Assembly: GCA_963765145.1 (NCBI GenBank)
Contig: CAVXVG010000025.1
Span: 1-34,028, forward strand
From: Parachlamydiales bacterium
GTDB taxonomy: Bacteria > Chlamydiota > Chlamydiia > Chlamydiales > JAJFMK01
Reading direction: 5' to 3'
Length of the DNA stretch: 34,028 nt
The notes beneath the pieces are model-generated. The model worked only from the letters and a program-made list of their open reading frames with translations, was not told the origin of the DNA and ran no database searches. Shown here piece after piece: positions 2,413 to 34,028 of this stretch. Both the position numbers and the translations under genes were made by a program. Within the stretch, counting starts at the first letter, position 1, and every line of letters begins with the position of its first letter.

Positions 2413-4092
2413 ATGGAAGCTGGTTCAGTCACATCATTCACACCGCAAGTACCCTCACTCGTCCGCAGTTTTAACTACACCTTCTCTGGAAAATGTGCTG
2501 ACCTTTTTGAAACCCATGTCGCCGGAAAAATAGAACACACTATAGGAGCCACTGCACTGAAAGTGGGTCGTGTGGTGGTTTACAACACCCTTTGGTTGCT
2601 AGCTCACATCGAGCAAAGCCTTTCGCGTAAAAACCACGCTCACCTCATCGCGTTTTTCTCCGATATGATGGCCGCTTCTCGCCTACTTCCTTTAAATACC
2701 GAACGACTTGTGAAGTGCCTAAACCATTTAGATCAGCTTAACTTAGCACCAGAGGGGAAACAGAGGATAGCCCAACTGATTTTGGATCAGATTGTGCCCG
2801 CCAAGCTAAGTAAAGATTTACTATTGGATCTCATGGTATTTTTAGGAAACGAGTCAGAAAAACAGCGCTCCTACCCTAAATTCATCCAAAATTGCTTCGA
2901 GCGATTGGATGAATTGAGATGGGGAAATAATCTACTTACAGGCACTGAAGCCTACCATCTTCTTTTCCCCATCTTGCAATTCTGCAAAAATGATACTAAA
3001 GACGACTTTAGGATCTCAGAATGTCTTTGGATAATTGAAAATAGTGAGTCTCAATTTTCTGAACAAGAGCTTCTTTCTCTTTTCTTTGCATTAATAGACT
3101 CTCGGAGAGAGTCGGCTGACCTGCGCCAAAACATCTTTCTTCCCCTTATCAAGTGGTTACCAAAGCATCTAACGCCCCTTACCTTCGATGAATGTTGCCA
3201 GCTATTGCCATTAGCTCTTCTTGATTATAAACATCATCTGAGGGCCGAGCTATTTTATCAAATTACTAGTCGCCTTCAGAACAAAGATTGTTCCATCACT
3301 CCCGAGCAGGCGGCAAACTTTTTAATTGAGCTAAGATTTCTCACGAGGAACATGGATGTTGATTTTTCAAAGCTTACGCCCGTTCTTGTAGAGTACTGGG
3401 AAAAAGAAGTAGCGCAATTAGAGACCATGAACGCTCAAGAACTTGTTGAGTTCATCAAATTACAATATCAACTGATTTACGCTCCATATGCTTTAAAGAA
3501 CGGCTATTCACATAAGACTTTCGACAATGACAACATATCGAGTGCCATCATTCGCAGAATGTCTTCATTAAATAAGCAGTTTACCCTTGAGCAAATAGGA
3601 GAGTGCCTCCCTCGTATTTCTTATTCCCTGCAGGAGGATCCGGTGTGGATGACTGAAATTAATGTTGCACTGCAAATTGAGCAGACAGTCTCTTGTGCCT
3701 CGATGTTTAACATCCTGCGACAATCCACAAGCCCGAGCCGCAATTCTTCCTGGTCTCTTCCAAACTATGAAGTGCAACCATTGCTTCCGCTTATAAAAGC
3801 TCAACTTTTAAAAGAGAGGACGGTTACAGGCCAAGAGTCAGCAGCCTGCATTGGCCTTCTTCTCTACATCCACGCTAATGGCCTTGGGGATGAGGAATGC
3901 TCTAAAATTGCAAAAGAGATCGTCCTACCTGTCCCGCTTCCAGATTTTTTAACTAGTAGCTATCGCGCAATTAACTTCTTTGAAAATGAACAACTCAACA
4001 GAGTCCACCTTTTTCTCTCAAAGCTCTTTCCACAAAACCACCCACAAAGGCAAGAAGTTTTAGAAGTTTACCCCTTCCATTCAAATTTATAG
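2413..4092 (+). CDS. Hypothetical all-helical protein, paralog 1 (possible secreted effector with degenerate helical repeats)
   Basis: 559-aa ORF with GGAG RBS. Leu-rich and clearly paralogous to 4312-5976 (shared VVVYNTLWLLAHIEQSLSRKNHAHLIAFF, FTLEQIGECLP, QESAACIGLLLYI). Confidence 0.85.
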   Translation: MEAGSVTSFTPQVPSLVRSFNYTFSGKCADLFETHVAGKIEHTIGATALKVGRVVVYNTLWLLAHIEQSLSRKNHAHLIAFFSDMMAASRLLPLNTERLVKCLNHLDQLNLAPEGKQRIAQLILDQIVPAKLSKDLLLDLMVFLGNESEKQRSYPKFIQNCFERLDELRWGNNLLTGTEAYHLLFPILQFCKNDTKDDFRISECLWIIENSESQFSEQELLSLFFALIDSRRESADLRQNIFLPLIKWLPKHLTPLTFDECCQLLPLALLDYKHHLRAELFYQITSRLQNKDCSITPEQAANFLIELRFLTRNMDVDFSKLTPVLVEYWEKEVAQLETMNAQELVEFIKLQYQLIYAPYALKNGYSHKTFDNDNISSAIIRRMSSLNKQFTLEQIGECLPRISYSLQEDPVWMTEINVALQIEQTVSCASMFNILRQSTSPSRNSSWSLPNYEVQPLLPLIKAQLLKERTVTGQESAACIGLLLYIHANGLGDEECSKIAKEIVLPVPLPDFLTSSYRAINFFENEQLNRVHLFLSKLFPQNHPQRQEVLEVYPFHSNL

Positions 4093-4311: not shown

Positions 4312-5976
4312 ATGTCCGTAGTTGATTCAGTCACGTCATTCGCACCTCAAATATCCCCATTCGTTCGCAGTTTTAACAACACCTATTCGGGGAAATGCGC
4401 TGCTCTTTTTGAAAGCCATGTCGCCGGAAAAATAGAACACACTATGGGAGCCGCAGCACTGAAAATGGGTCGTGTGGTGGTTTACAACACCCTTTGGTTG
4501 CTAGCTCACATCGAGCAAAGCCTTTCGCGTAAAAACCACGCTCACCTCATCGCGTTTTTCGCCGATATGGTGGCCGCTTCTCGCCTGCTCCCTTTAAACG
4601 CCGAACGGCTTGTGAAGTTCCTAAGCCATTTCGATCAGCTTAACTTAGCACCAGAGGGGAAACAGAGGTTGGCTCAACTAGACAAAGACTTGCTCTTAAA
4701 AGTTATGATATTTTTAGGAAAGGAGTTAGCAGAAAAACAGCGTTCTTATCCTGAGTTCACAAAGCGTTGCCTTTTGCAGTTTGAACAATTGAAAACCAGT
4801 AAAAATCCTTGCTCTGGTGGCGAGGCTTATCAGTTTATTTTCCCCATCTTGCAACTCCAAAAAGATGACATTTCTGTCGGCTTGAATATCTCGGAATGCC
4901 TAAGGAGAATGGGCGATGATGAACGGGCGGGGAAAGTAACATTTTCCGAACAGGAACGCCTTGCACTTTTCTTTGCTTTAGAGGAATCTTGCGGCGAACG
5001 GACTATTCCCTATCTAGACCCTTACATTTTTTCTCCCCTCATTAACTGGTTACCAACGGAGATTGGGTCCTTCAACCTTGACCAACTCTTACAGCTATTG
5101 TCATTAGTGCGCATGCAGAGCAGTGACGGTCGCTCTCTCTCTTCTCCTATCATTAACGAGATAGCTACTCTTGTTCAAAAAGCCCCCCTAACTCCGGAAC
5201 AAGGAGAAAAACTTTTAACGTACTTACCCCCACAAAATATATTCGCCACCCCTATAAATCTTCGAAATGCCTTTACACACTGTTGGGATAACTCATTGAA
5301 GCTGTTAGACACCATGAAATCACAGGAGCTTGTTGCACTCATTAAATTCCAATATCAGCTGTGTAACTCCCAACATCCAAGTCAATTGCCCCAATATTTT
5401 GATAATGATCAAACATCGGAAAAAATCCTTACAAAGATGCGCTCATTAATCACATCGTTTACCCTCGAACAGATAGGAGAATGCCTTCCTCTTCTTCCTG
5501 AGAAAAAACAGGATAAGCTAATCGAGATCTGCTTAACTCAAACAAAGCTTGCTCTACAATCTGAGCAGTTAGTCTCTTGTGTTTCGATGCTTAACATGTT
5601 GCGACAATCCGCAAGATACGGCCGCCCTTTCTGCTGGTCTCTTCCAGACGATCAAGCACAACTATTGCTTCCTCAAATGAAATCTCAACTTTTAAAAGAG
5701 AGGTCATTTACAGTCCAAGAGTCTGCAGCCTGCATCGGGCTTCTCCTCTATATTTACGCTTACGATCTCGTGGACGAGGGATGCCTGAAAATTGTGAAAG
5801 CGATCGAGCTACCCAACCCGCTTCCCGACTTTCTAACTAACTACCATCAAGCGATAGTCTTCTCTGAGGAGGAACAAGCAAACAGAGCCCACAAATTTCT
5901 GTCAGAACTCCTTCCAGAAGACCACACGATGAGAGAAAAAGTTTTAGATAATTACTTCTTCGATTCGAATTTATAG
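4312..5976 (+). CDS. Hypothetical all-helical protein, paralog 2
   Basis: 554-aa ORF with GGAG RBS. The upstream sequence CTCCTCGATGGCTAAAAAT...TAGAATATTTCTTTT is duplicated from 2351-2397. Confidence 0.85.
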   Translation: MSVVDSVTSFAPQISPFVRSFNNTYSGKCAALFESHVAGKIEHTMGAAALKMGRVVVYNTLWLLAHIEQSLSRKNHAHLIAFFADMVAASRLLPLNAERLVKFLSHFDQLNLAPEGKQRLAQLDKDLLLKVMIFLGKELAEKQRSYPEFTKRCLLQFEQLKTSKNPCSGGEAYQFIFPILQLQKDDISVGLNISECLRRMGDDERAGKVTFSEQERLALFFALEESCGERTIPYLDPYIFSPLINWLPTEIGSFNLDQLLQLLSLVRMQSSDGRSLSSPIINEIATLVQKAPLTPEQGEKLLTYLPPQNIFATPINLRNAFTHCWDNSLKLLDTMKSQELVALIKFQYQLCNSQHPSQLPQYFDNDQTSEKILTKMRSLITSFTLEQIGECLPLLPEKKQDKLIEICLTQTKLALQSEQLVSCVSMLNMLRQSARYGRPFCWSLPDDQAQLLLPQMKSQLLKERSFTVQESAACIGLLLYIYAYDLVDEGCLKIVKAIELPNPLPDFLTNYHQAIVFSEEEQANRAHKFLSELLPEDHTMREKVLDNYFFDSNL

Positions 5977-10896: not shown

Positions 10897-11064
10897 TTTC
10901 GTCCTTTTTTAAAGAAGTGGAAAACTAATGATACCATATTTTCGACTAAAAATCGAGCAGTTGAGGGATGGTGACATATTACATTAACCAAGAAGGACTT
11001 GTCGAATCTTTATTATAATTTTAAAAGAAAGAGAGATAATATTTACTTAAAAGGAGAAAATGCC

Positions 11065-12024
11065 ATGTCTACAAATGCAATTACGGGGAATAGGCAGGGG
11101 CACTCTAAACCCACACCTCACGAGACGCTCTCTACCGGACTTTTAGCTCTTACCACGTGTATTGCTCTTCTGACCAATTTCTCATCCTTTCGACAAAACG
11201 CCTCTGTCGCTCTTCGCTCACTAGCCCTTATGTCTTCTTTGATCAAATTAAAGAATAATTGGGCAAAAGAAGGAAATGCAGGAAAAACGGCACAGATTGC
11301 AAAAGTTTTCGCAGTCGCTTTAGGATTGGCTGGAATCAAAAAAGCCTCCGTTCCCTTAATTAAAGCTTCTGTTATAGCCAATATCGCTACTCATATCTTT
11401 GAAATGGGAAATGCTTTTTATCAGAAAGAATATCTCAAAGGCAGCAGCCACTTACTGTCGACCACTTTAGACACCTCAGTTTTAGCAGCTCTTACGACGT
11501 CATCCCCTGTTGTCAAAGCGTTGTCATTTTATACTAATCTGGCAGCCATGGTGTTTTTTGCTATCAATGAGGCCGCGCTCTTTGATAAAAAAATAAAAGA
11601 GCATGCGTCCTCTCCCATACCACCATTACATCACTGCATTCAAATGGTCTGTTATGGGATTTTGGCAGCTAACAGCTGTGTCAACCTAATCACAACACTC
11701 CCTTACAAAACAAAAAAAGTCCTATCCGGACATTTTTCAGGCACAAACAATCAAACAAGCGACTTAACTATCTATGGTAGTAAAGGGAAGGTGCAACAAG
11801 TCGTTAAACCTGGAGGGTCGTACTCTTTTGACATAAAAGGTCAGGCACAACTATTGGCAGTACGTCTTATTAAGGGAAGACCTCGCGGTTTTCGGCTCAA
11901 AGCAACATCTATTGACACAGCAATTACTTATGAAAAGCCCTCTTTAACTGCAGGTCAATTTGCCACCTTCCCTGTCGGAAGGAATGTGATTGTCACGGGC
12001 AACCTCGAAGGACTCAATGAATAA
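11065..12024 (+). CDS. Hypothetical membrane-associated protein (possible secreted or inclusion-membrane-like)
   Basis: AAGGAG RBS before ATG 11065. S/T-rich N-terminus and several hydrophobic segments; no family recognised. Confidence 0.7.
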   Translation: MSTNAITGNRQGHSKPTPHETLSTGLLALTTCIALLTNFSSFRQNASVALRSLALMSSLIKLKNNWAKEGNAGKTAQIAKVFAVALGLAGIKKASVPLIKASVIANIATHIFEMGNAFYQKEYLKGSSHLLSTTLDTSVLAALTTSSPVVKALSFYTNLAAMVFFAINEAALFDKKIKEHASSPIPPLHHCIQMVCYGILAANSCVNLITTLPYKTKKVLSGHFSGTNNQTSDLTIYGSKGKVQQVVKPGGSYSFDIKGQAQLLAVRLIKGRPRGFRLKATSIDTAITYEKPSLTAGQFATFPVGRNVIVTGNLEGLNE

Positions 12025-17683: not shown

Positions 17684-20630
17684 ATGACTTCTGCTCTTTT
17701 TACCTATTCTCCTATTCGGTTAGTTCAGCGAACTTGCGAAGACCTGCAACTCGGAGTTTTTTGGAAAGCCGGAGAGGGGCTCATTGGTCGGATCGAGCAA
17801 TTGCATGGCTTCAAGGATGTCCCTCTTAAAGGGCTTCAAACACATATTCCAACCTCCGAGCTTCGAAGAATTTACAAAGTATTGCAAGAGGGGACGCTAA
17901 CCTGGAATGGCAGCGCAATTGTTTTTCATCGCAAACTCGGGTTACGTGGAGGCGGAGACCAAGAGCTGGATATTCCTGCCCTTTCTGCTCCCCAACCGGT
18001 TGCATTCACCTCAAACAAAAGTGTAGCTTCTCCTCAAAGCATACCTTGCTTGACAGGTGACTTTGTTGAAAGAAAAGAGCTCGTGGGAGAGTTAGAAAGA
18101 GGCCTTTTGCATCAAGGCTTTAAGCAAGGATCAACGCTTAAAGCCCGCTTGCTCTATGGAAAGGGCGGGATGGGAAAAAGCGAGCTTGCCGTCCATTTTG
18201 CAGAAAAACATCAACAAAAATTTTCCTGTATTTGGTGCTTTGATTTAAGCAAAAACGACTTGTACTTTGAATATCAGATGCTTGCCGATGAATTAGGATT
18301 AGCGCGCATCGAGAAGGAAGATTTAAAAAGTTTGCGCACAAGGGTGCACCGCAAACTCGAGCGAGAAACGCAAAAACCTTGGCTTTTTGTTTTTGACAAT
18401 GTCGAAAGAAAAATCGGGGTGGATGAATATCCTGCAAGAGGTGGCTCCCTACTCATGACCTCTCAAGATCGATCTGTCTGGGACAATCGAGGGGGAAAGG
18501 ATTCGCGGTTGAAAACTTCACTAAAATGGAGGCAACTGAGCTTGCTAAAAAGACGCTCGGAGGAAGGCCTCTTGATGAACTCGAGCTTTTGCTAGACAAT
18601 TGGGGGTATTTTCCTTTCGCCATCCATCAAGTCTTGAGATACATCGCAAGCGATCCCGGAATGACGATCAAAAAGTACAGAGAGATCTTTCCAAACCCTT
18701 TGGATGGGGCCATATCAGAACAGGAAAGATACAAAAAAGCCCTCCAAACGGTATGGCAGCCGGCAATTGAAAAATTGGAGTTTGAAAATCCTCAGGCGCT
18801 CCGCTGGCTTGAGCTTTGCGCTTTCATGGCCTCAAATGGAATCCCTGAAAGCCTGCTTTTAGCTTCACTTGATGGGGACGAAGCTGTTTTAACGCGTATT
18901 CGTGCATCGATTGCTAAATTTTCACTAGCTAAATACTCGTTCCAAGAAAAGAGTTTTTCCCTACACAAACTTTTCCAGCAAGTTTTAAGACAAAGGGAAA
19001 ATGATTTAGAAATATGCTTTCAGCTCCTTGAATTGTTTGCTAAAGAATGGAACTTTGACTTTGAAAAAAGTGAAACATGGGAAAAAGCCAATGAGTATTT
19101 TGTGCACCTAGAAGAGCTATCTTCACATTTCAGTTCTGCAGGTTATGACAATCCGCTATTGCTCAATTATGTGGGCGATTTCGCACTGAAAATGCGTTAT
19201 GACTTTGAGAAAGCTTTTCAGTGCCTTGAAAAAGCTGCAGCCATTTTACGCATCCTGCCTGAGTGCCAAATGCAGCTTTGCACTGTGTTACATGGGCTTG
19301 GCTTAGTGAAATCGGGCCAAGGTGATGAGCGAGCAGCTATAGATTATTATGTGGAGGCGGTCGAAATTAGCAAGGCCATTGACAGCTCCTTTTGCTTGGC
19401 TTTTGTGAAAACAGTTTAGGAGAAGCTTATAGAGTGCTGGGAGAGTTGGACCTTGCTATGGAGCATCACCTAAACGCGCTTTCGGCAAGAAGCAAGGTCG
19501 CCGAAGAGTTCCCAGGTTCTTTAGCAAAAAGCTACAGCAATATTGGTCTTGTTTACCGCGAGCTTGGGCAGTTCGATGCAGCCATTAAGCACTTTGAGGA
19601 AGCCATCGTCATTTCAAAAAAAGCTTTCGGTGACAACCATTTTCATATTGGAACTATCTTAAAAAATATAGGCAACGTCTATTGGGACCAAGGCGTCTTT
19701 CCTCTGGCAGAGGCTAAATTCAGAGAAGCATTAGCCATGCATCTAACAGCTTTTCAAACGGAGGATCATCCCGAAGTTGCCATAACAAAAATGAGTGTGG
19801 CCCAATCTTGCTTTCAGCAAGAAAAGCTTGAAGATGCAAAAGAGCTTTTAGACCAAGTCCTTCCAGTGCTTATTTCAACTTTTGGAGAACATCATCATCA
19901 AGTAGGAACTTGCCGTACGAACCTTTCGAATGTTCTTGCCAAACAAGACAAGCTGAAGGAAGCCTATGATGAGGCTGAGCTTGCTTTGGTGATTTTCAGT
20001 AACGCTTTTGGTGAACAACATGTTGAGTATGGGTTTGCTTTATGCTCTAAAGGCGCAGCTAGTCTCTTTTCAAGCCGCATAGATGAAGCAATCACTTGTT
20101 ATGAAAAGGCAGAAGCAATTTTTAAAAAATCGAATAAAAAATCGATCCATATTTCGAGCGGTCAAAATTTAGGGGTTGCCTACGCATTGAAAGGAGAAAA
20201 GCTTTGTAGAAAGGGTGATTATGATCCGGCGTTAGATTATCTTAATCGTGCAATGAAGATACCGGAATTTAAAGATGAGCAACCGTTTGAGTATGCAAGA
20301 GCTTTAGACTTGCGAGGGTCTGTCATCTCAAACAAAGGGGATTTAAAAAAAGCATTCGACGATTATGGAAGTGCTGCAAAGATTTTCTCTAGCAGAGCCA
20401 CCAGAAGCGACAGACAGACTTTGTTTTATGGGTGCAATCAGCTCAATCTAGCTTGTGCATGTATACATCAAAAGAAAAAGCCCGCAGATGTTTTAAAACA
20501 TCTAAACTTGGCCTACAATGCCTTCAAAAAGGGTTTTGGAAAAGAACATACTAAAACCCTTGAGTTGTCAAAGCAAATCCAAAATTACAAGCGAACAGGC
20601 AGTTTTGATCATGAGGCGCTAAATGGATAA
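17684..20630 (+). CDS. NB-ARC (STAND) NTPase plus TPR-repeat protein, in three frameshifted pieces (breaks near 18500-18530 and 19410)
   Basis: FVERK.LV, Walker A GKGGMGKS, Walker B WLFVFDNV, GYFPFAI, HKLFQ and many TPR_12-like repeats (SYSNIGLVYRELGQFDAAIKHFEEAI). Confidence 0.85.
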
Positions 20631-21050: not shown

Positions 21051-23415
21051 TCAAGACTCTTCGCCTATTTCAAGTGCTTTTAAAAAACACCTCGTTGCCT
21101 TCGTGAACTTCTCTTGATTGTAGTAAGCCGCTCCCAACTGGCTATACATTCTAGATAGATCTTCCCGCCCTTTATCGGTAGTGCCATATGTTTTGACCCT
21201 AATCTTTAATGACTGGTAAGACACTGAGCGGCTAAAACCCAATTCTTTTGCCGTTCATAGACGTGATAGAGGTGATAGAAGCTATTGCCTACATCAGGGC
21301 TCTCCTCTCCGCCAACTTTCTTGTAAATATCAAGAGCTTTATTGTGAAATGTGATCGCTTTTGAAAACTCCCCTGCGTCATCGTAGGCTAGCCCTAAGTG
21401 ATTTTGGGCGACTGCGATGCGAGTGTGGTCTTTTTTGTAGAGCTTTTCCAAGATAGCATGGCCTTCCTCAAGAGACCCTAATTGCTTGCAGAGGCTCCCC
21501 TTTCTCTCTATATGTATCACCTAAATTGATTAGGCTGTCCGTTATGTTTGGGCCTTCCTCCCCGAGACGCCTTCTGATGGCTAGGCTTTCCTCTGTGGAG
21601 TTCAATTGCTTTTGGAAAATCCTTTTGAGCTGCATAGATAAGGCCCAAGTTATTCAAGGTATGAGCAACACTTGCGCCTTCTTCTTTGAGATCCTTTTTG
21701 ACCTCAAGGCTCCGCTCATAAAACCTCATTGCTTGAGCAAGATCCCCTTGGGCATAATAGTCAGTACCTAAGTTGTTCAAAGCGGCGCCAATCATCTGCT
21801 CATCTCGCTGGAATCTTTTCGTAGACTTCAAGACTATTTGTATGCCAATCAATCGCCTCCGGGTAATTTTTTTGAGTTTGGTAAACTGTGCCCAAGTTAT
21901 TCATAAAGGCAGCGGCACTAGGACATTCCTCCCCAAAAGCCTTTTTACTAATCTCTAGACCTTGTTTATAATAACCAAGCGATCGCTCAAGATCAATTTC
22001 TAGACTGCTTGAATATTCCCCTAGGCCGTTCAACAGATAGATTAAGCCGCCCATCTCATTTTGGCTGTAGGTGCAGCGTAAAGCAAGATGAAGCCCTTCA
22101 CTTATTGAAGCCGTCCAGTCCCCTAATTCATCCACAAACCAGGCAAAATGGCCTTTTTCTTTTGCTACAACTGAGCAAAAAGCGGCAACATGAGGGAAAA
22201 GCATCTTGGCTTTCTCCCAAGTTTTTGGGTCTTCAATTTTAAATTGCCAATCTTTTTTCAGACGATTTAACAGCGTTCTTAGGCTGGCCTTCTTTTCATG
22301 CGGAGATTGTTGATCCCGAACAACCAACTGGATTAATCGATGGATGGAATAACTCTCATTTGAAAGGCTTTTCAATAGGCTAAATTCACTTAATCTTCGA
22401 AGAAGTCGGTTGAGGATAAGCTGAGATTGTCCTTCTGAGGCAAACAGGCTTTTTGGAATGTGATCAGGAGCAACGTAAGCTGCAAGAGAAAGAAGCTCAA
22501 AAGCACCAGGAGTTCCCTGTTGGATTTTATCCATCGAGATTTTCCAGGTCGTTGCAACTGTGTAGGGATAATTTTCAGGCGCCTTTTCTTCTTTCCAAAG
22601 TGCAGACCTTTCTTTGTAAAAAAGCAAGAGATACTCGGTAAAAGATGTGTTTGTCTGTTGCATGTAGGCTCCTGCCTGCATAAGAGCAAGAGGAAGATAG
22701 CCAAGTTCTTCTGCAAGAGTATACCCGCCTTTTAAGTCGCTGTGCCCCGTGATGGTTTTAAGAAGCTCGAGAGCGTCGCCTGGAGAGAGCAGAGGAACAG
22801 GCAGATCCCATTGTGAGTGAGGATTGCGCGAAGTAATGAGAATAGTTTTTTCTCCCGGAGGAAAATAGCCTTTAAGCTTGTCCGGTTCGTCTGCATTATC
22901 AAAAATGAGGAGACATCGACCTTTGTCGGTAACCCATGCTTGAACTTTTTGTAAAACGTCTTCAGGCTTATCCTCAGGTTTGATCAGTTTGAGCTGTTCA
23001 CCTAAGTCTCGATAACTTCTCTGGGGATCTTCTCCTGAAAGCCACCAAACAAATGGATATTCCTTTTGATGCTCATAGGCATATCGGAGCGCCAAGCTCG
23101 ATTTTCCTATCCCTCCATCCCCGAAAGGACCACGACTTGTCCATCTTGAACTCTTTCTTCGACCCCCTTTAAAAGATCCTCTCTTCCGATGAAAAACGGG
23201 TCTTTAGAAGGTAGTTGATAGGTTTTCAGCGAAATGCCGGGGACCTCCCCTAAGCTTGCCACTTTTCGAACGCCTACCGGTTGTGGCTGCTTAAAAATGG
23301 GAAGGGAGATCCCTTCAATTTCTTCGATTTGTACCGACGCCTGAGAAACAGGCAAAAGGCTGCTGGCAGTACACCCTACAGGTAAACCGGTGTTTTGAGA
23401 AATGCGATTAGACAT
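21051..23415 (-). pseudogene. NB-ARC (STAND) NTPase plus TPR-repeat protein, fragmented into five ORFs
   Basis: FIGREDLL, P-loop split at about 23110 (SGM.G/IGKSSLA), LLIFDNAD, LITSR, LGYLPLALMQAGAY, IHRLIQ and TPRs (NNLG..Y..Q). The 3' end is uncertain and the breaks may be sequencing errors. Confidence 0.8.
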
Positions 23416-24764: not shown

Positions 24765-27700
24765 TTATAGGCGGCTTTTGGTGGGGGGAACAAAGTGGGA
24801 AGCGTATTTTTCTTCCATGAGCTGCCTTGCAGCCTCTTTCTCCCTGTTATAGCTGATCACTTGCTCAAAGGAAGTTTCCGGCTCTTTGGTTGTATTTAAG
24901 TTTTTGTAAAAAGTGTCGCTTGCTTCTAGCTTGTCAAATAGGTGGTGGGGGTCGCTTTTTAATGCACGAACGAAGCGCCCCAATTCCTCTTTAGACAGAT
25001 ATTTAAAAATATAAAGCTCTGATGGGTCGATGCTATTTGGATCCGCATTCCTTAATTTTTGAAGTTCTGAAAAAATGGGTTTTGCAATATAGATTTTCTC
25101 AATATTTTGGTGGCCGACGGTGTCATAGAGCGCGTAGTGAGTAGATCCTTTCTCTCTTTGCTGTCTAACTCTCCGCTTTTGTATGGCCTGATTGACATAA
25201 TCCCCTTTGATGACAATGAAAGCACCCAATTCGCCAACGTAACTTTGCACATACTGTTTATCGAGAGCACAAAAGATTTGCCCAACCTTTGCCCATGTCC
25301 CAGAATCTGCACTAGCTTTCGTCAATTCGCTATCGCCAGCCCCTCTTTCAAAAAGATCTAACAATCCATCAAGAGCACGTGTATCTCCTTTCCTACCATT
25401 AATCCCTCGAAAAACAAAAGATCCGTTAGGCAAGTAGAGAGGGTCAAAATAGCGAACGCCTTTATCCTTAATGGTTTCTAGGCTAGATTGAAACGCCGAG
25501 AGAGCACGCAGCTTATCCGGCCTGCGTTCGTAGAATTCTTTAAAGAGCTTAGGAATATCTTCATTTTGGAGATTGATCTCAGCCAAGAGATCCAGCATTC
25601 TTCTTTTGATCACCCCCCTATTCTCATGCAAATGAAGAGGGAGAGCACTAAAGAGATCAGAAATCTCCATATATTACCTTCTTTCTTCTCCTTCATCATG
25701 TTGCGCATAACGGTCCCAAAGCGGTCCTTTGATCACATTCCAAGCACTTAAGAGCGCTGGTTCATATTTTATTGTTGACAACACTTTAGCCAAGGAAAAT
25801 TTCATCTCACCTGGAGTGCTCTCTCTTTTCATAAGAGGAATAAGAAAGTCTAGAATCTCCCGGTCCTCAATTTTCGAAGCATCGTAAGAATAGAGACCAA
25901 GTGCATGTATAAACGCATTTAAAACAGTAGGGTCGGCCCGACCGTTACTTACCAACGTCTTAAATATTTCAAAGATCCCGCTCCGATATTGACTTTTTAA
26001 ACGGGCAAAGTCGAGCTCCGAAAGAGCTAAAACAGCTTCCCCTAGAACATGCTCCATTTCACGATGGTCATTCCCGCTCGTAGAAATCCAAAGGGAAAAA
26101 ATCAGATTGAGAAGATGGGTTTCATCAGCATCTGGATCGTGAAGGATTTGGGTTTTCTTTAATAAGGTCAGGGCGCTTTTAAGAACTGGTGCTGCCACCC
26201 TCCCACCGCTAGCATGTTTTAACAATTCACTGACCAATTGCAACCCTTTTCTGTCTCTGAACAAAACAAAACCATTCAACAACCATTGCTGCTCTTCTAC
26301 AGGTAAAGATAAAAATTGATCAACGGTCTCCGGCATTCGCGTTTTTTTATCATCTAAAAATTGGTCTTCAACATCTTTTATATCATCACAATTTTGTATA
26401 GCCACTAACAGTTTATTGAATATTTCGTTATTTTTCTCGTCGCCATTGCCTGGGTTGCATGAGTGAAGAATGAGATGTAACACTCTTCTCATCAATTCGC
26501 TAGAAATGTGCAATTTATGGTTCATTTTAATGGATTCTAATATACAAGATACATCATACAAGCCACTGTAATCGGGTAAAGATGACATATCTAGCCGTTG
26601 CTTAGCAGCAAACCTCTTAACAGAAAAGCAATAATCTAAGCACACATCAATAAAAGAATTTAAATCGGCATTGTCAATAATCCGCTCTTGGAAGTTCTTA
26701 GAACAAAAGTTGAGGACTAATAACAAGCTGATCTTGCGGCTCTCTTCTGACCCCAATTGCTCAGACCCATGATACGGCGTATTCATCCACCGTACATCTT
26801 CTGATTCAACATATTTCTTTCCGGATGGCGTATTTAACCATGAGGCTATCCCTTTGTAGATAGGCGCCTCAATAAAGGGCTCTAAACAACGCAACAATCC
26901 ATCTGTCCCTTGAAAATCAAGAAATCGATTATTATATACTAAACGGTAGGCAATACTTAATCCGTCTGTATCTACTCCCAATGCGATGATTTTTTGGATA
27001 TTATCTATTGAAACATAAGGTGAATCGCTACAATACTCAACTAAAAGATCCGTAGGCGCATTCAACCATTCTTTGACATTTTCTTTATTCAAATGTTTAG
27101 CCATCTCAAAAAATTTATCCACACTTTCTAGAGGCCCATCACGTGATATTTCAACAAAGAGTCTGCGAAAAAAAACGCGCTGCGAACCTTTTGGAACTGA
27201 ATTAAACAGGCTTAACATCAATTTTTCATCGCCAACTGTCGCACCATCTCTAAGAAACTTTGCAAAAAAACTAATCTCCAAAGAACTATGAAAATTGTAC
27301 GAATAAAAACTAAAATCACCTAATTGCTCTACATTTAAAATAGGAGAAAACAACTCGACAATTCGTTCTTCTGAAAACCCAGGAATACTTAAGGCCTCTT
27401 TAAATAACGCATAAGCTGCTTGCCCCCCGTTTATTTTCTCCTTCTCTGCAGAAACTACAATTTTTCTTATCGCATCTTTGAGCACATCCTCAACCAAAGC
27501 AAATTGTGAGGAAGAACTTTGGGACTTTGGAAACATCTGGGCTCGGAGTTTTGCACATGGGCATCTGTTCCCACCAAATCTCTGAGATGAAGCTGCTCAA
27601 TGTCTTTAATAGCAAGCATCTCAGAGTTAGGAGCTTTAGAAGCTAAAGCAGATTGCAAGTGGTTCCAGATTTCCAATTCCGAACTTATTTGCTTGTCCAG

Positions 27701-28105: not shown

Positions 28106-30944
28106 TTATAGGCGGCTTTTGGTGGGGGAAACAAAGTGGGAAGCGTATTTTTCTTCCATGAGCTGCCTTGCAGCCTCTTTCTCCCTGTTATGGCTGATCA
28201 CTTGCTCAAAGGAAGTTTCCGGCTCTTTGGTTGTATTTAAGTTTTTGTAAAAGGTGTCGCTTGCTTCTAGCTTGTCAAATAGGTGGTGGGGGTCGCTTTT
28301 TAATGCACGAACGAAGCGCCCCAATTCCTCTTTAGACATGTGTCTAAAAATGGAAAGCTCTGATGGGTCGATACTATTTGGATTCCGCATTCCTTAACTT
28401 TTGAAGTTCTGAAAAAATGGGTTTTGCAATATAGATTTTCTCAATATTTTGGTGGCTGACGGTGTCATAGAGAACGTAGTGAGTAGATCCTGCTTCTCTT
28501 TGTTGCCTTACTCTTCGCTTTTGTATGGCCTGGTTGACATAGTCCCCTTTGATGACAATGAAAGCACCTAATTCGCCAACATAATCTTTCACGTAGTGTT
28601 TATCCAGGGCACAAAAGATTTGCCCCATCTTTGCCCATGTCCCCGAATCTGCACTAGCTTTCGTCAACTCGCTATCGCCAGCCCCCCTCTCAAAAAGATC
28701 CAACAATCCATCAAGGGCACGTGTATCTCCTTTCTTCCTATTAATCCCCCTAAATACAAAAGATCCTTTAGGCAAGTAGAGGGGGTCAAAATAACGCACA
28801 CCGCCTAATGGCATAACTTCCAGGCTAGATTGAAACTTCGAGAGCGCACGTAACTTGTCCGGGTTACGTTCATAGAACTCTTTAAAGAGCGCAGGAAGGT
28901 CTTTGTCTTTGAGATTAAGTTCAGCAAGAAGATCTAGTATTCTTCTCTTTATCACTCCTCTATTCTCATGCAAATGAAAAGGGAGAAAATTATAGAGATC
29001 AAAACTCCCACGCATCACCTTCCTCTCTTCTCCTTCTTCGTGTCGTGCATAACGATCCCAAAGCGGGCTTTTGATCACATCCCAGGCACTTAAGAGCCCC
29101 GGTTCGTACTTGATGGTGGCTAACATCTTAGCTAAAGAAAATTTCATCTCAAGTGAGGTACTTTCTTTTTTCATAAGAGGAATAAGGAAATCTAGTATTT
29201 CCCGATCCTCTATTTTAGAAGCATCATAAGAATAGAGACCCAATGCCTGCACAAATACATTTAAGATAGAAGGATCAGCCCGACCACTATTCACCAACGT
29301 CTTAAATATTTCGAAAATCCCACTCCGGTATTGGCTCTTTAAACGAACAAAGTCGAGCTCGGAAAGAGCTAAAACAGCTTCGCTTAGGATGTGCTCAGTT
29401 TCGCGATGATTGCTTTCCTCCGTAGAAATCCAAAGGGAAAAAATCAGATTGAGAAGATGGGTTTCATCAGCATCTGGATCGTGAAGGATTTGGGTTTTTT
29501 TTAACAACGTCAGAGCACTTTTAAGAACCGGAGCCGCTACCTTCCCACCCCCAGCTTGCTTTAACAGCTCGCTCACCAATTGCAAGCCTTTTCTGTCTCT
29601 GAACAAAACAAAACCCGTCATGAGATGCTGTTGATCTTGAACCGGTAGAGATAAAAATTGATCAATAGTTTCCGGGATTTGTTTCTTTCCTTTATTCAAA
29701 AAATAATCTTCAACATCTTTTATGTCGTCGCAATTTTGTATTGCAACTAATGAAACATTGTAGTCTTTAATCCTTTCTCCGTGACACGATTCGATGAGAT
29801 CCAGTACTCTTGCAAGCAACTCACCAGAAAGCTTCAATCTTTGATTCATTTTTATGGCATTTAACGCATCAATCGATAATAATTTACGCCCACTACGGCT
29901 AAAAAAATAATCTAAATAAACATCAATAAACGAATTGACATGGTCATCATCGCGAATTCTTTCTTCGAAATTATCAAAAAAATCGTAGATCAATTCCATA
30001 CTCGCATAGCGCGTAGCTTCTGACACCAGGTATTTGTTCTTATTAGCACAGAAGGCTTCCATCTTGTGGGCAGTTTTATCACCGAGGCATTTTAAACATT
30101 CAATAAATTCAACTATTCCTATAGATTTGAGTAAATCTCGACGTCTTTTCAAGTAAGATAAACAATATTCCATTGTGTAAGACGACTTATAATCTTTTGT
30201 TGAATCTATGATTTTTTGAAGATTCTTCGATGAAGAATGAGGTGAAGTGCAATAATTTACTAAAACATTATCCGAATCCGAATTAATCCATCCTCCATCT
30301 AAAGAAAGAGACATCTCTAAAAATCTATGCATTCTTTCCGGTGACAGCTGACTTTGTGCTCCAAAGAATACTTTCATTAAAAAAATACGACGTGAATCTT
30401 CAGGAACTAATTTAATAAGATTAAACAACAAATCACTTTTACCACCTGTCACATCATCTAACAGCAAATGTACAAAAAAATAAACACCGGAAATCGAATC
30501 ACGATCAAGATATTCATTAAATTTAGTTATTATAGGCGAAAAAAGTTTGGCAATTTTTTCTTCCGGAAATCCAGGAATCTTTAAGACTTCTTTAAACAGA
30601 GCAAGCGCGGCATTGTCTGTATGAACCGAAGCTACAATTCTCGTTATTACATTTTCGATGACATCCTCAACCAAAGAAAATTCTGAGGAAGAACTTTGGG
30701 ACTTTGGAAACATTTGGGCTCGAAGTTTTTGTATGTGGGCATCTGTTCCAACAAAACCGCCAAGATGAAGCTGTTGAATGTCCTTAGCAGCAAGCTCATC
30801 AGAGTTAACACGGCGGGAATTTAAAACGGATTGCAAATGCTTCCAGATTTTCAATTCGGAACTGATTTGTTTGTCTAAGGGGTCGATCTGCCCAAAAGGC
30901 TGACCATTCCACCAAGAAACTAAATAATTAAAAATCCCTGCCAT
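28106..30944 (-). CDS. Large orphan protein, paralog B (about 940 aa if the frameshift near 28380 is repaired), with possible ART-fold C-terminal domain
   Basis: ORF 28374-30968 plus 28106-28390. Paralog A reads KLRNADPNSIDPSEL straight through this junction, which shows the frameshift. Confidence 0.8.
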
Positions 30945-31129
30945 GGTTTTATATTCAAATAAAACCATTAATTTAACATTAATTACCTCGGGAAGCCGAT
31001 AATTAAGTCGGTACCTAGGGCGTTGGATCTAAGGCGATTTCGCTCTCAAAAAATTAAGGTAGAAATTGCCTTTACTCCGCAGCGCGTTTGGAGTTACTAT
31101 GTGGATATAGGGCATAGAGCTTGAGAATG

Positions 31130-31185
31130 AACCCCCTCACATTTAGGTTGTTGTTTCTAACCACAAACAATCTAAGAGGGGGGCT
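31130..31185 (+). promoter_or_regulatory. Left-end hairpin overlapping the transposase RBS
   Basis: AACCCCCTC..TTAGGTTGTT...AACAATCTAA-GAGGGGGGCT directly before ATG 31188. It could sequester the RBS (inference). Confidence 0.55.
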
Positions 31186-31187
31186 CT

Positions 31188-32276
31188 ATGGTAGACTATA
31201 CAGGCCAATCCATTTTTATTGGGATTGACGTCCATAAGAAAACTTACAGTGTAACTGCCATCTTTGATGGCACGCTCATAAAGAGGGATAAAATGGCTGC
31301 TTGTCCTCAGAAGTTAATAGAATACTGTCAGAGGTTCTTCCCTAATGCTAAGATTTTTAGCGCCTATGAAGCTGGCTTTTGCGGGTTTGGTCTTCATCGC
31401 CAATTGGTAAAAAGTGGTATCCATAACATCGTTGTACATGCCGCCTCTATCGAGGTTAAAGCAAGAGATAGAGTGAAGACTGACAAACGTGATTCTTTAA
31501 AAATCGCAACGCACCTGTCGCGTAACCAGCTAGAGTGCATCCATATTCCATCACCAGAAAGAGAAGCGACTCGGCATATATCAAGGCTGAGAGAAAAGTT
31601 TGTTCGGGATAAAACTCGCCTGGGAGTACAGATAAAAGCTTTCATGAACTTGAATGGGCTGCTTGCTTATGACGATGAAAAAAGAGTGAACCGGAAATGG
31701 ATCTCAATTTTGCTAGGTGAACTTAAAGATGATTCCGATGGATCGTTTTACCTAAGAATGATGGCCTCTAGATGGGTAGAGCTAGATGAAAGAATAACAG
31801 AGGTTGAAAAGAGACTACATGTCCAGGCTGATAATGATTGGGAACTGGAGAGAATTTATCGAAGCGTGCCAGGTATAGGTCCAATAGTCAGCCGAACACT
31901 AATCAACGAACTTGGAGATATGTCGCAATTTAAGAACGACAGGTCGTTATACAGTTTTACAGGCTTAACCCCTCAGGAATATTCATCAGGGGAGCATGTA
32001 AGGCAAGGGCACATTAGTCGCCAGGGTCGACCAGTGCTGAGAAAGATACTAGTGCAAGCTGCATGGAGAGCAATCAAGGAAGATGAGGCTCTAGCTGAAG
32101 TATTTGAGAGGATTAGCCAAAGGACAGGAAAGAAAAAGGCAATAGTGGGCATGGCAAGACGGTTAATAGGGATAATTCGAGCTTGTTTACGAGAAAAAAG
32201 GGAGTATGTATGGAGAAGAGGAACAATAAATAACATTGTTCGACCAACAGTTAAGAAACGTGTCACAGCCCTGTAG
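31188..32276 (+). CDS. IS110-family DEDD transposase/recombinase, intact
   Basis: GIDVHK, YEAG and KTDKRD RuvC-like DEDD residues. SVPGIG, GL.P..YSSG (catalytic Ser) and GHISRQG in the C-terminal Tnp domain. Confidence 0.97.
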   Translation: MVDYTGQSIFIGIDVHKKTYSVTAIFDGTLIKRDKMAACPQKLIEYCQRFFPNAKIFSAYEAGFCGFGLHRQLVKSGIHNIVVHAASIEVKARDRVKTDKRDSLKIATHLSRNQLECIHIPSPEREATRHISRLREKFVRDKTRLGVQIKAFMNLNGLLAYDDEKRVNRKWISILLGELKDDSDGSFYLRMMASRWVELDERITEVEKRLHVQADNDWELERIYRSVPGIGPIVSRTLINELGDMSQFKNDRSLYSFTGLTPQEYSSGEHVRQGHISRQGRPVLRKILVQAAWRAIKEDEALAEVFERISQRTGKKKAIVGMARRLIGIIRACLREKREYVWRRGTINNIVRPTVKKRVTAL

Positions 32277-32415
32277 ATGCGCACTTGCGGCTGCGAGAGC
32301 AGGCCGTGTTTTGGAGTTTAGGGTGTGACTTTTATTAAAAGCGTTTCGGAAGAGTAGCTTGTGGAGTCTCTGATGAGATGGTCACGAATAGCAGATTGAG
32401 CCTTTGAGCTTTAAG
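32260..32415 (+). ncRNA. Predicted bridge RNA / seekRNA with target-binding and donor-binding loops (ends approximate)
   Basis: Two stem / internal-loop / hairpin units. Loop 1 carries GCACT (32281-32285) and TTTGGAG (32310-32316), matching the two target strands. Loop 2 carries AGTAGCT (32353-32359) and ATAGCAG (32388-32394), matching the two strands of the circle junction. Confidence 0.8.
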
Positions 32416-32595
32416 AGCAATGTTAGTCTGAAAAAAATTAAGGCGATGAACTTGCCGGGTTTTGTGCTGTCAAAATTATGGTTTTAAGGGGTTTATTAAG
32501 AAAAATAAGCCATTAATTTTACATGTTTTAAGTTGATGACATACTGGTTAAAATAGGCGTGAGAGCAGGTTTTTGACAACAATCTGAGGTGGGAC

Positions 32596-32618
32596 TTGCA
32601 AAAATATCCACATAGCAG
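32596..32618 (+). promoter_or_regulatory. Outward-facing -35 box (TTGCAA) that forms a junction promoter on circularisation
   Basis: TTGCAA at 32596-32601. Joining the right end to the left end places TACTAT (31095-31100) 18 bp downstream. Confidence 0.7.
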
Positions 32619-32626
32619 TGCTAAAC

Positions 32627-32849
32627 GGCGTTGTTGCACAATGCAGAATCGAAGCAAATAAGTGAATTTTAAAGGTTTAAACCACAGAGAACACAGAGAT
32701 CACAGAGAGAGTGTAAAAATGAAACCATGCTTTGGCAATATTTTTAAGCCTATTCAGGTTTTCCGACTCTCCTCTGTGGTCTCTGTGCTCTCTGTGGTTA
32801 ATCTTTTATAATCAGAGCCTTAAATAAAAATGAATTGTGCAACAACGCC
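32627..32849. mobile_element. 223-bp IS903-like MITE with a perfect 9-bp target duplication
   Basis: TIR GGCGTTGTTGCACAAT / ATTGTGCAACAACGCC and TSD GTGCTAAAC (32618-32626, 32850-32858). Cargo is inverted tandem 9-mers ACCACAGAG-AACACAGAG-ATCACAGAG / CTCTGTGGT-CTCTGTGCT-CTCTGTGGT. Confidence 0.9.
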
Positions 32850-32914
32850 GTGCTAAACTCCTGTTTAGCTTTGACTTATCAGTGAAAAGTGAAAGCTAAA
32901 CAGGAGTTTAGCAC
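32850..32914. repeat. Core of repeat 'A', both arms hit by IS903-like insertions
   Basis: GTGCTAAACTCCTGTTTAGCTTT...AAAGCTAAACAGGAGTTTAGCAC, matching 1429-1480. Confidence 0.85.
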
Positions 32915-34028
32915 GGCGTTGTTGCACGATACCCCTGACACGCTGCTAAAAGGCATGTCAAAAAAAAATGCATGAAGTAATCTGTTTTCGACTAAAAAAA
33001 GGGAAACTACTTCATGCAAGCTAGCGCAAACTATCAAATTCGCAACTGGGCCGATTATAACAAAGCTCTGATCCAAAGGGGAAGCATAACTATTTGGATC
33101 GAGGAAAACGCTCTAGGAAAGTGGCTGTCTCATAAACATACAAAATCTGCTGGAAGACCGGAGACATACTCAGATGACGCCATCCTGATGTTGTTGGTTT
33201 TAAGGGAGCGATTCAACCTAACATTGAGAAGTCTGCAAGGTTTTGCCGCATCCATATTCTTGCTAATGAGGTTATTTCTAACAATTCCTTGTTATTCACA
33301 AATCTGCCGAAGAGCAAAGACTCTCCATAAGAGCATTAAACGCCTAAGTAATGGGCCTGCCAGGCACATTATTTTAGATTCTACCGGCCTTAAGGTGCAT
33401 GGAGAGGGAGAATGGAAAGTTAGGACTCACGGCAAAAGTAAACGACGTATTTGGAGAAATTTCATATTGCGATTGACGCTGAAACACAAGATATAGTTGT
33501 TTGCGAATTAACAGATCATAGTACTGGAGAGGCAGAGCCAGCAGTAAGGATGCTCGACAAGATCCGAGGGAAAATAGATACGGTGCGTGGAGATGGTGCT
33601 TATGACCCAAATGTAGTGAGGGAGAAAATACATCAAAAAGGGGCCAGAGCCATTATTCCTCCACCAAGACACGCAAGGATTAAGGGAGCCAAAGAAGGAT
33701 GGGTAAAGGATCGAGATACAGACATAGCGAGAATACATGCTCTGGGGGATAGAGATACTGGTAGGCGACCCTGGAAAGAGGAAGTTGAGTATTACAAAAG
33801 GTCATTAGTAGAGACTTCCATGTTTCGAGTAAAAACGATGTTGGGTGATGAACTAAAATCACGCACATTAGAGACTCAACGCACTGAAGCGTTTTGCAAG
33901 TGCCTAGTAATCAATAAAATGAATAGTCTAGGAATGCCGAAGGGCGTTTGGGTAAAAAAATAAATTAGGATAGAAAAAGACCTTGTAAGGGGGTCGAAAA
34001 TTGTTTTACTTAATTGTGCAACAGGGCC
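32915..34028 (+). mobile_element. IS5 family, IS903 group insertion sequence (about 1114 bp; right flank outside the window)
   Basis: Ends GGCGTTGTTGCAC / GTGCAACAGGGCC resemble IS903-type GGCTTTGTTG termini. Preceded by GTTTAGCAC, the reverse complement of GTGCTAAAC. Confidence 0.9.
33014..33963 (+). CDS. IS903-group DDE transposase, frameshifted near 33458
   Basis: YQIRNWADYNKALIQRGSITIW, GRP..YSD.AI, DSTGLKV.GEGEWKVR.HG, WR/KFHIAID, DGAYD and YYKRSLVETSMFRVK. Confidence 0.92.

Follow-up and report, generated by a model that had tools for sequence, protein, structure and literature searches.

The window, by which we mean the whole 34,028-nucleotide stretch of DNA that was analysed, carries near its right end an intact IS110-family element (31094-32616) with an AG core at both ends, whose bridge-type RNA has two loops and spans about 32262-32401. 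The features of this element, of the host repeat that surrounds it, and of other loci in the same genome are collected in Table 1. Elsewhere in the window, NB-ARC-like/TPR proteins are encoded at 17684-20630 (+), spread over three overlapping open reading frames that possibly represent a frameshifted gene, and at 21800-23095 (-). Six open reading frames of 301-864 aa (28374-30968, 25674-27536, 24765-25670, 2413-4092, 4312-5976 and 10999-12024) have no Pfam match.

Table 1. Features of the element, its target repeat and associated loci. Positions are those of the window, except where one of our contig handles (C3 to C29) precedes the number.
Feature	Position	Strand	Remarks
Left part of host palindromic repeat	31076-31091	+	ends in TTTGG, the target half read by the 3' target guide
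Left AG core	31092-31093	+	flank reads ..TTTGG, AG, TTACTATG
Non-coding left end, 94 bp	31094-31187	+	first bases are the donor half for the 5' donor guide
Left sub-terminal inverted repeat, 12 bp, perfect	31097-31108	+	motif otherwise only at 32604
IS110-family DEDD recombinase, 362 aa, intact	31188-32276	+	Pfam PF01548 and PF02371; NF033542
Target-binding loop	32262-32329	+	outer stem 32262-73/32319-29; inner hairpin 32287-32307
5' target guide	32277-32285	+	complements core and right flank of top strand; GCACT of the sequence-only reading at 32281-85
3' target guide and handshake dinucleotide	32310-32318	+	TTTGGAG (32310-16), identical to left flank and core; TT (32317-18)
Donor-binding loop	32344-32401	+	weak closing stem 32344-48/32397-32401; inner hairpin 32360-86
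Donor-loop guides and handshake dinucleotide	32351-59; 32388-94; 32395-96	+	5' guide (AGTAGCT at 32353-59); 3' guide ATAGCAG; AT
Right sub-terminal inverted repeat (32604-15) and right donor half CATAGC	32604-32616	+	
Right AG core (32617-18) and right target half TGCTAAAC	32617-32626	+	flank reads ..CATAGC, AG, TGCTAAAC
IS5-type miniature element, 223 bp	32627-32849	.	later insertion in the same repeat; 9-bp duplication 32618-26 and 32850-58
Remainder of host palindromic doublet	32850-32914	.	
IS5-family element in mirror-image repeat arm	32915-34028	+	transposase in two overlapping frames, 33014-33496 and 33451-33963
Second IS110-family element, five copies	C18:60087, C27:238112, C29:48882, C29:153242, C29:29275 (minus)		
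Six Y1_Tnp genes	C21:219036, C24:56771, C29:104647, C5:119344, C28:46907, C3:73		none near the palindromic repeat

The encoded recombinase reaches 213.8 bits against NF033542, for which the cut-off is 140, and it retains D14, E61, D99, D102 and S267-G268, residues that are invariant in 70 homologues. Its predicted fold (pLDDT 88) finds its best matches in IS621 and ISCro4, with TM scores of 0.66-0.69. A DEDD RuvC domain and a Tnp domain with catalytic serine, combined with site-specific insertion around a short core and a lack of terminal inverted repeats, place the element in the IS110 family in its broad sense. The stop codon occupies 32274-76 and the 5' arm of the outer RNA stem falls within the last codons, so that the RNA would begin inside the gene. 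Such overlap is common in relatives without being the rule; the outer stem begins upstream of the stop codon in 12 of 70 elements.

The AG core predicted by the sequence-only reading was found at both boundaries. Ends are conserved among homologues, where they were located by end motifs, the left one reading AG and then TTNCTATG. The left non-coding end has a clade median length of 108 bp (n=66), and the right non-coding end, 340 bp here, has a clade median of 339.5 bp (n=62). The sub-terminal repeats agree at 12 of 12 positions in this copy and, compared without gaps, at no more than 8 of 12 in 54 of 58 clade elements; judged by eye, the left arm in the relatives has one additional base. A total of 6 bp would separate the two repeats in the predicted circle. 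Among nine public runs none was listed as RNA data containing the element, and contigs from four DNA runs showed no circle joint; we give neither result evidential weight.

Public contigs from soil and peat hold near-identical pieces of the element, one of them identical over 32210-32423. In a contig from a near relative (17 differences in 177 nt; a single contig of low depth), the right end continues directly into the remainder of the repeat, and the miniature element is absent. Another contig of low depth has C-to-T variants at 32280, inside the 5' target guide, and at 32329, in the outer stem; either may be a strain variant or an error.

Rebuilding the empty site yields TTTGG-AG-TGC, the target that had been proposed from sequence alone. 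That proposal stands, but it had missed that the target belongs to a palindromic repeat found across the whole genome. The 10-mer occurs 287 times against 4.7 expected, and GCG precedes it at 95-98% of those 287 sites. Allowing one mismatch, we counted 332 repeat arms, 95 inverted doublets (mostly 82-83 bp apart), and only 10 of the 332 arms within open reading frames of at least 150 aa, though such frames cover 77% of the genome. High copy number, intergenic placement and inverted doublets are the marks of a REP/REPIN repeat. A search for a cognate RAYT beside the repeat gave none, with zero of the six Y1_Tnp matches in the 84.8%-complete assembly having a repeat within 1.5 kb. The repeat 13-mer is present in 270 copies here, in 7 in one congener and in 0 in another. 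The element itself is present once in this 84.8%-complete assembly, with hundreds of repeat sites free. The host is probably chlamydial, as had been suggested; within the present analysis one sub-threshold match to PF03504 weakly favours that assignment.

Direct inspection placed all eight RNA segments described by the sequence-only reading where it had put them. Of 20,000 dinucleotide shuffles of 32255-32600, one contained all four guide words. Folding gives the outer stem and the two inner hairpins pair probabilities of 0.89-0.99 in four of four windows, and the single-sequence fold as a whole is unremarkable (z = -1.34, with 20 of 200 shuffles equally stable). The exposure of the guides holds in part, since in these folds of naked RNA they are partly unpaired (mean 0.66 for target guides, 0.36-0.87 for donor guides); the donor guides are partly paired because the two can pair with each other. 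Rfam gave 21 matches at E<=1 within 30900-33100; all fall short of the gathering score, leave 32260-32415 uncovered and sit in the flanking palindromes.

Two details of the original description had to be amended. The hairpin and guides of loop 2 stand, and to them is added a closing stem that is visible only through homologues; we added it by eye, and it is weaker than the other stems (73% of cells paired). The 5' target guide GCACT is correctly placed and too short, since the matching word TGCGCACT (32278-85) is longer. This word fits a 23-copy variant of the repeat over 8 nt. The element occupies the 177-copy variant, which the 5' guide fits less well: it matches the occupied site over only 5 contiguous nt, with mismatches at three of seven non-core positions. 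The donor-loop handshake base of this copy pairs with neither substrate.

The protein search gave 3,561 matches, of which the best 119 after the query are 53-84% identical to it, and locus scans covered at least 79, at least 80, and 58 loci. We analysed 119 loci (L001-L003, L031-L066 and L110-L189), of which 96 had an RNA anchor and sufficient flank; 14 near-duplicates were dropped, 70 were aligned, and 12 were held out. Viral loci, all at most 36% identical, served only as tree rows and model controls. One locus with a long linker (L151) was misaligned, right ends were doubtful in three others (L128, L139 and L156), and all four were counted as misses.

The consensus structure of the 70 homologues reproduces the stems first read from the single copy. 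Stem cells are paired in 91.1% of 2,099 cases, against 32-47% in slid controls, and two-sided changes occur in 26 of 30 pairs, which makes the stems compensatory. The guides covary with the DNA that they are supposed to read. For the 3' target guide, 65 of the 70 rows were usable and were collapsed to 54 distinct guides, which agree with the left flank at 215 of 270 bases (71.4+-7.9 when permuted, with 0 of 20,000 permutations as high); 41 of the 54 match at four or five of five positions. The 5' target guide, in 61 rows with 56 distinct guides, agrees with the right flank at 273 of 392 bases (141+-8.3 when permuted, 0 of 5,000), two registers being allowed in both test and null, and its match declines from 89% beside the core to 41% at position 7. 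Controls with the guides swapped are flat (62 against 61.6, and 72 against 65.5). In 59 of 62 rows, kin included, the 3' donor guide is identical to the right end (permuted 32.6), and the 5' donor guide, at the three non-core positions nearest the core, matches 177 of 198 bases, again with kin included (permuted 145). Its distal part barely matches in the clade, with agreement at position 6 in 1 of 66. Covariation across homologues, a check that the sequence-only reading had itself suggested, strongly supports the claim that a bridge-type RNA reads both the target and the element's own circle junction. Guide programmes differ among elements along with the flanks, which would amount to natural reprogramming.

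A further regularity crosses between the loops. In 50 of 61 elements the base that follows the 3' donor guide is identical to the first base of the target (permuted 22.5; rows include kin), and in 0 of 66 is it identical to the donor base of the element itself; the base that follows the 3' target guide is identical to the first base of the donor in 64 of 66. No signal was seen at the second handshake position (13 against 10.0). Because kin were left in the donor and handshake rows, the statistics on those rows overstate independence. In IS621, the handshake bases pair with the non-cognate DNA (PMC11208158; PMC13626964), and the pattern in this clade reads as a handshake of that type. Target and donor both have T at the handshake position in 7 of 61 elements, all of which use A in loop 2. 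The present copy is one of the seven and, since it shares the base in target and donor, cannot discriminate the rule.

A covariance model was built from the 70 sequences, and its match in this copy (32243-32414) belongs to its training set; searched against 78 sources, it brought up 14 more elements at E<=1e-6. In the held-out set, all 13 elements with a readable right end have a TG core together with a donor guide ending in TG, and the donor guide is exact over 7 nt in 12 of the 13. By this comparison, AG-to-TG is a natural core change. The TG-core subclade (L049-L053, L062-L065, L164, L168, L172, L185 and L258) is mostly cyanobacterial; in it the 3' guides follow the core change and the core-facing bases of the 5' guides do not. 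The model gave only weak matches in the sister group of 30-36% identity (three, E 6e-4 to 0.5), and none in the named references.

On the evidence of these comparisons, the limits and core of the element can be defined, its recombinase is intact, a two-domain RNA is conserved downstream of the gene, the guides track the DNA, and the target is palindromic. The element is very probably an autonomous member of the IS110 family whose movement depends on recombination guided by a bridge RNA. The steps are proposed by analogy with IS621 (PMC11208160), ISEc11 (PMC11187229) and CazIS110-1 (10.1101/2025.10.25.684509). The RNA would be co-transcribed with the transposase gene or processed from its transcript, and would bind the recombinase. 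The ends would be joined into a circle reading CATAGC-AG-TTACTATG, a joint that in most relatives would create a sigma-70 promoter. Loop 1 would open the target TTTGG-AG-TGC(GCA) and loop 2 the donor, strand exchange would take place at the core, and the element would land in fixed orientation at one position of the repeat. Excision may be cut-out or copy-out.

How active this copy may be is a separate matter. A promoter of the form TTGAC[AGT]-17/18-TATGNT spans the predicted junction in 44 of 58 elements, and a junction promoter has been described for the IS110 family (PMC12288879). The consensus is absent from this copy, at whose junction a weaker, shifted TTGCAA-18-TACTAT may be read; a promoter scan of the linear element gave 4 sites against 3.3 expected. 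The copy is probably a weak mover, low activity being plausible because the consensus promoter is missing, the guide fit is imperfect, and the element is present once. The earlier description of the system as complete is right as far as the sequence goes. It is possible, at a probability that we put clearly below even, that the same system has been crippled in this copy, which would have inserted once and now be largely silent through a decayed promoter and imperfect guides. Such decay would fit a junction without consensus -35 and -10 boxes, an imperfect 5' guide and handshake, and a single copy where another IS110 element on the same repeat has five. However, the frame and catalytic residues are intact, the shifted promoter may be readable, near-identical pieces are found in the soil and peat contigs, and IS621 excises on read-through transcription alone (PMC13626964). 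This account is compatible with the best explanation and concerns activity alone.

It is improbable that only the target loop works, carried on a short processed seek RNA, with the protein recognising the ends through their inverted repeats and the second domain serving as structure. Target-only RNAs of 70-100 nt are dominant in four IS1111 elements, and an 82-nt form is enough for ISEc11 (PMC11187229); a pathway using the target loop alone has also been reported for CazIS110-1 (10.1101/2025.10.25.684509). Because the donor is nearly palindromic, symmetry of the repeat could account for some of the donor match, and linker length between the loops is highly variable, as L151 illustrates. Against this reading, the donor guide tracks every donor variant, the AG-to-TG core change included, and the handshake signal between the loops (50 of 61) requires that loop 2 meet the target strand. 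In L151, where the linker between target and donor loops is unusually long, the donor variant is mirrored in its guide. Bridge-guided movement with both loops reading DNA is the explanation that we prefer. That the words arose by chance or as degenerate copies of the element ends, and that no RNA functions here, is extremely improbable: their shortness (5-8 nt), the modest fold score and the lack of an Rfam family at gathering score speak for it, but the four words are jointly rare, and compensatory stems, guides that track dozens of different flanks, and the held-out TG-core set refute it.

The element is not alone in exploiting the repeat. A second, unrelated IS110-family element, whose 366-aa protein is 26% identical to that encoded at 31188-32276, is present in five copies, one of which (C29:48882) has an internal stop. 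All five lie at GTTTAGC-AC-TCCAAA with an AC core; this is the repeat arm that the first element occupies, read the other way round and with the core shifted by one base. A stem-loop downstream of its gene holds TTTGGAGT and TAGCAC, found jointly in 6 of 20,000 shuffles, and a 46%-identical relative in another genome (G053) has different guides, which by eye fit its own flanks. Two members of the first clade, L110 (65%) and L151 (51%), also lie in this kind of site, with guides that match; in L151 they match its own flanks. Inverted-repeat ends of IS5 type occur many dozens of times genome-wide, by an inexact count, immediately following the same 9-bp palindrome word. Insertions of this type in the repeat are mostly miniature elements of 170-390 bp with varied interiors.

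The sequence-only reading called the element IS1111-type, which holds for its layout and guide order and fails for family membership on repeat spacing and phylogeny. A long downstream non-coding region is present, and the guide complementing the top strand lies 5' of the bottom-strand match, as in IS1111 elements in the strict sense. Sub-terminal repeats in that family measure 11-13 bp and match perfectly or nearly so, to be set against 12 of 12 positions in this copy and at most 8 of 12 in 54 of 58 clade elements. The terminal extensions of that family (7 or 6 bp left, 3 bp right) are not seen, the circle having 6 bp in all, and the transposase falls outside a 100/100 clade of seven references that includes IS5075 and ISEc11. 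Of these, only IS5075 and ISEc11 are named as IS1111-family in the literature consulted; the other five references, taken here to be of IS1111 type, were grouped with them by the tree. The tree of 31 proteins, from which 9 of 24 attempted loci without usable reading frames were omitted and in which IS1111, IS110, IS621 and ISEc21 are absent, gives the present clade support of 100/99 and places it nearer a Bacteroidota-type group and ISSso6. A union of the clade with the IS1111 cluster, picked after the tree had been seen, has an AU p of 9.7e-5. The element works like IS1111 and is not a strict member; "IS1111 group" would be acceptable in the looser usage of Durrant, which asks for right-end RNA and repeats.

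The mechanism itself has been known since 2024, and no new one is revealed here; insertion of IS110 elements into REP repeats is likewise known, including cases of two in one genome, and IS110-family elements with a downstream region have already been noted (PMC11187229). New here are the host palindrome as target, the second IS110 element with guides in opposite orientation, and the crowding by IS5-type elements. Tentatively, and at somewhat short of even probability, we read the whole as a third bridge-recombinase architecture (a downstream-RNA lineage apart from IS1111, with a conserved, near-palindromic donor that is also the junction promoter, an IS621-like handshake and an AG-to-TG switch), together with two 26%-identical recombinases that would have converged independently on one 12-bp palindrome site, in opposite orientations and one base apart, in competition with IS5-type elements. 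By the comparison across the clade, the handshake mechanism extends to a distant downstream-RNA lineage. Bridge recombinases are under development as genome-writing tools, and a screen of 72 orthologues in human cells focused on the IS621-like clade (10.1101/2025.05.14.653916). In the present clade the scaffold can be read, natural target programmes number more than 50, two cores occur naturally and the handshake rule is visible, so that orthologues could be chosen and reprogrammed rationally. The shared target is a ready test of the convergence of guide RNAs on host repeats that serve as harmless landing sites.

We found no paper on this element or clade, in a search that subscription literature largely lay outside, and none joining IS110, Chlamydiae and bridge RNA; the parts consulted of the literature on chlamydial REP and insertion sequences do not describe the repeat. 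Rows 598 and 992 of Supplementary Table 1 of Durrant 2024 give domain alignments with motifs of this clade (by eye) and have an empty ISfinder column. The searched parts of those supplements hold no RNA, ends or activity for the two rows, and none of five exact motifs or terms. The lineage therefore figures in the Durrant 2024 tree but has no ISfinder name, and the branch appears to be unnamed. Bridge RNA systems as a class have been mined intensively. A preprint of October 2026 reports 32,190 bridge RNAs and 86 covariance models (10.64898/2026.10.21.760802), so that this RNA family may already be modelled.

Among named elements, the best-scoring relative is ISSso6 (31%, E 1e-40), a name taken from RefSeq annotation. 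By eye its group shares sub-terminal repeats and a long right end, but the RNA model has no match there and the ends differ; the literature that we located naming both ISSso6 and IS110 is a genome resource. With the IS1111 family (ISEc11, IS5075/IS4321, ISKpn4, ISPa11), the element shares the long downstream non-coding region, the guide order, a 12-bp sub-terminal repeat (in this copy), the GL-P----SG motif and, in its relatives, a junction promoter (PMC11187229). It differs in circle spacing, which is 6 bp here and 7+3 or 6+3 there (PMC11187229), in repeats that in this clade extend over the donor guide sites and, for most relatives, are imperfect, and in a protein that shares only 23-30% identity with theirs and falls outside their clade.

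ISPpu9 and ISPpu10 of Pseudomonas putida KT2440 provide the precedent for two IS110-family elements in the REP/BIME repeats of one genome; ISPpu9 recombines at AG, and a stem-loop in the target aids ISPpu10 (PMC12288879; 10.64898/2026.03.19.712850). However, ISPpu9 belongs to the IS110 group and has no inverted repeats (PMC12288879), and the parts of these reports consulted do not describe unrelated guides that read one site in opposite senses. IS621 and ISCro4 (IS622) share the two-loop, four-guide RNA, the 2-nt core, the handshake, a palindromic-repeat target and the fold (PMC11208160; PMC11208158; PMC13626964). Their proteins are 18-21% identical to the one described here, their RNA lies upstream of the gene whereas here it lies downstream, and the element is inverted relative to the target. 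Read on the bottom strand, the geometry is that of IS621, with a CT core and the left guide before the right, and only orientation to the target and position of the RNA differ.
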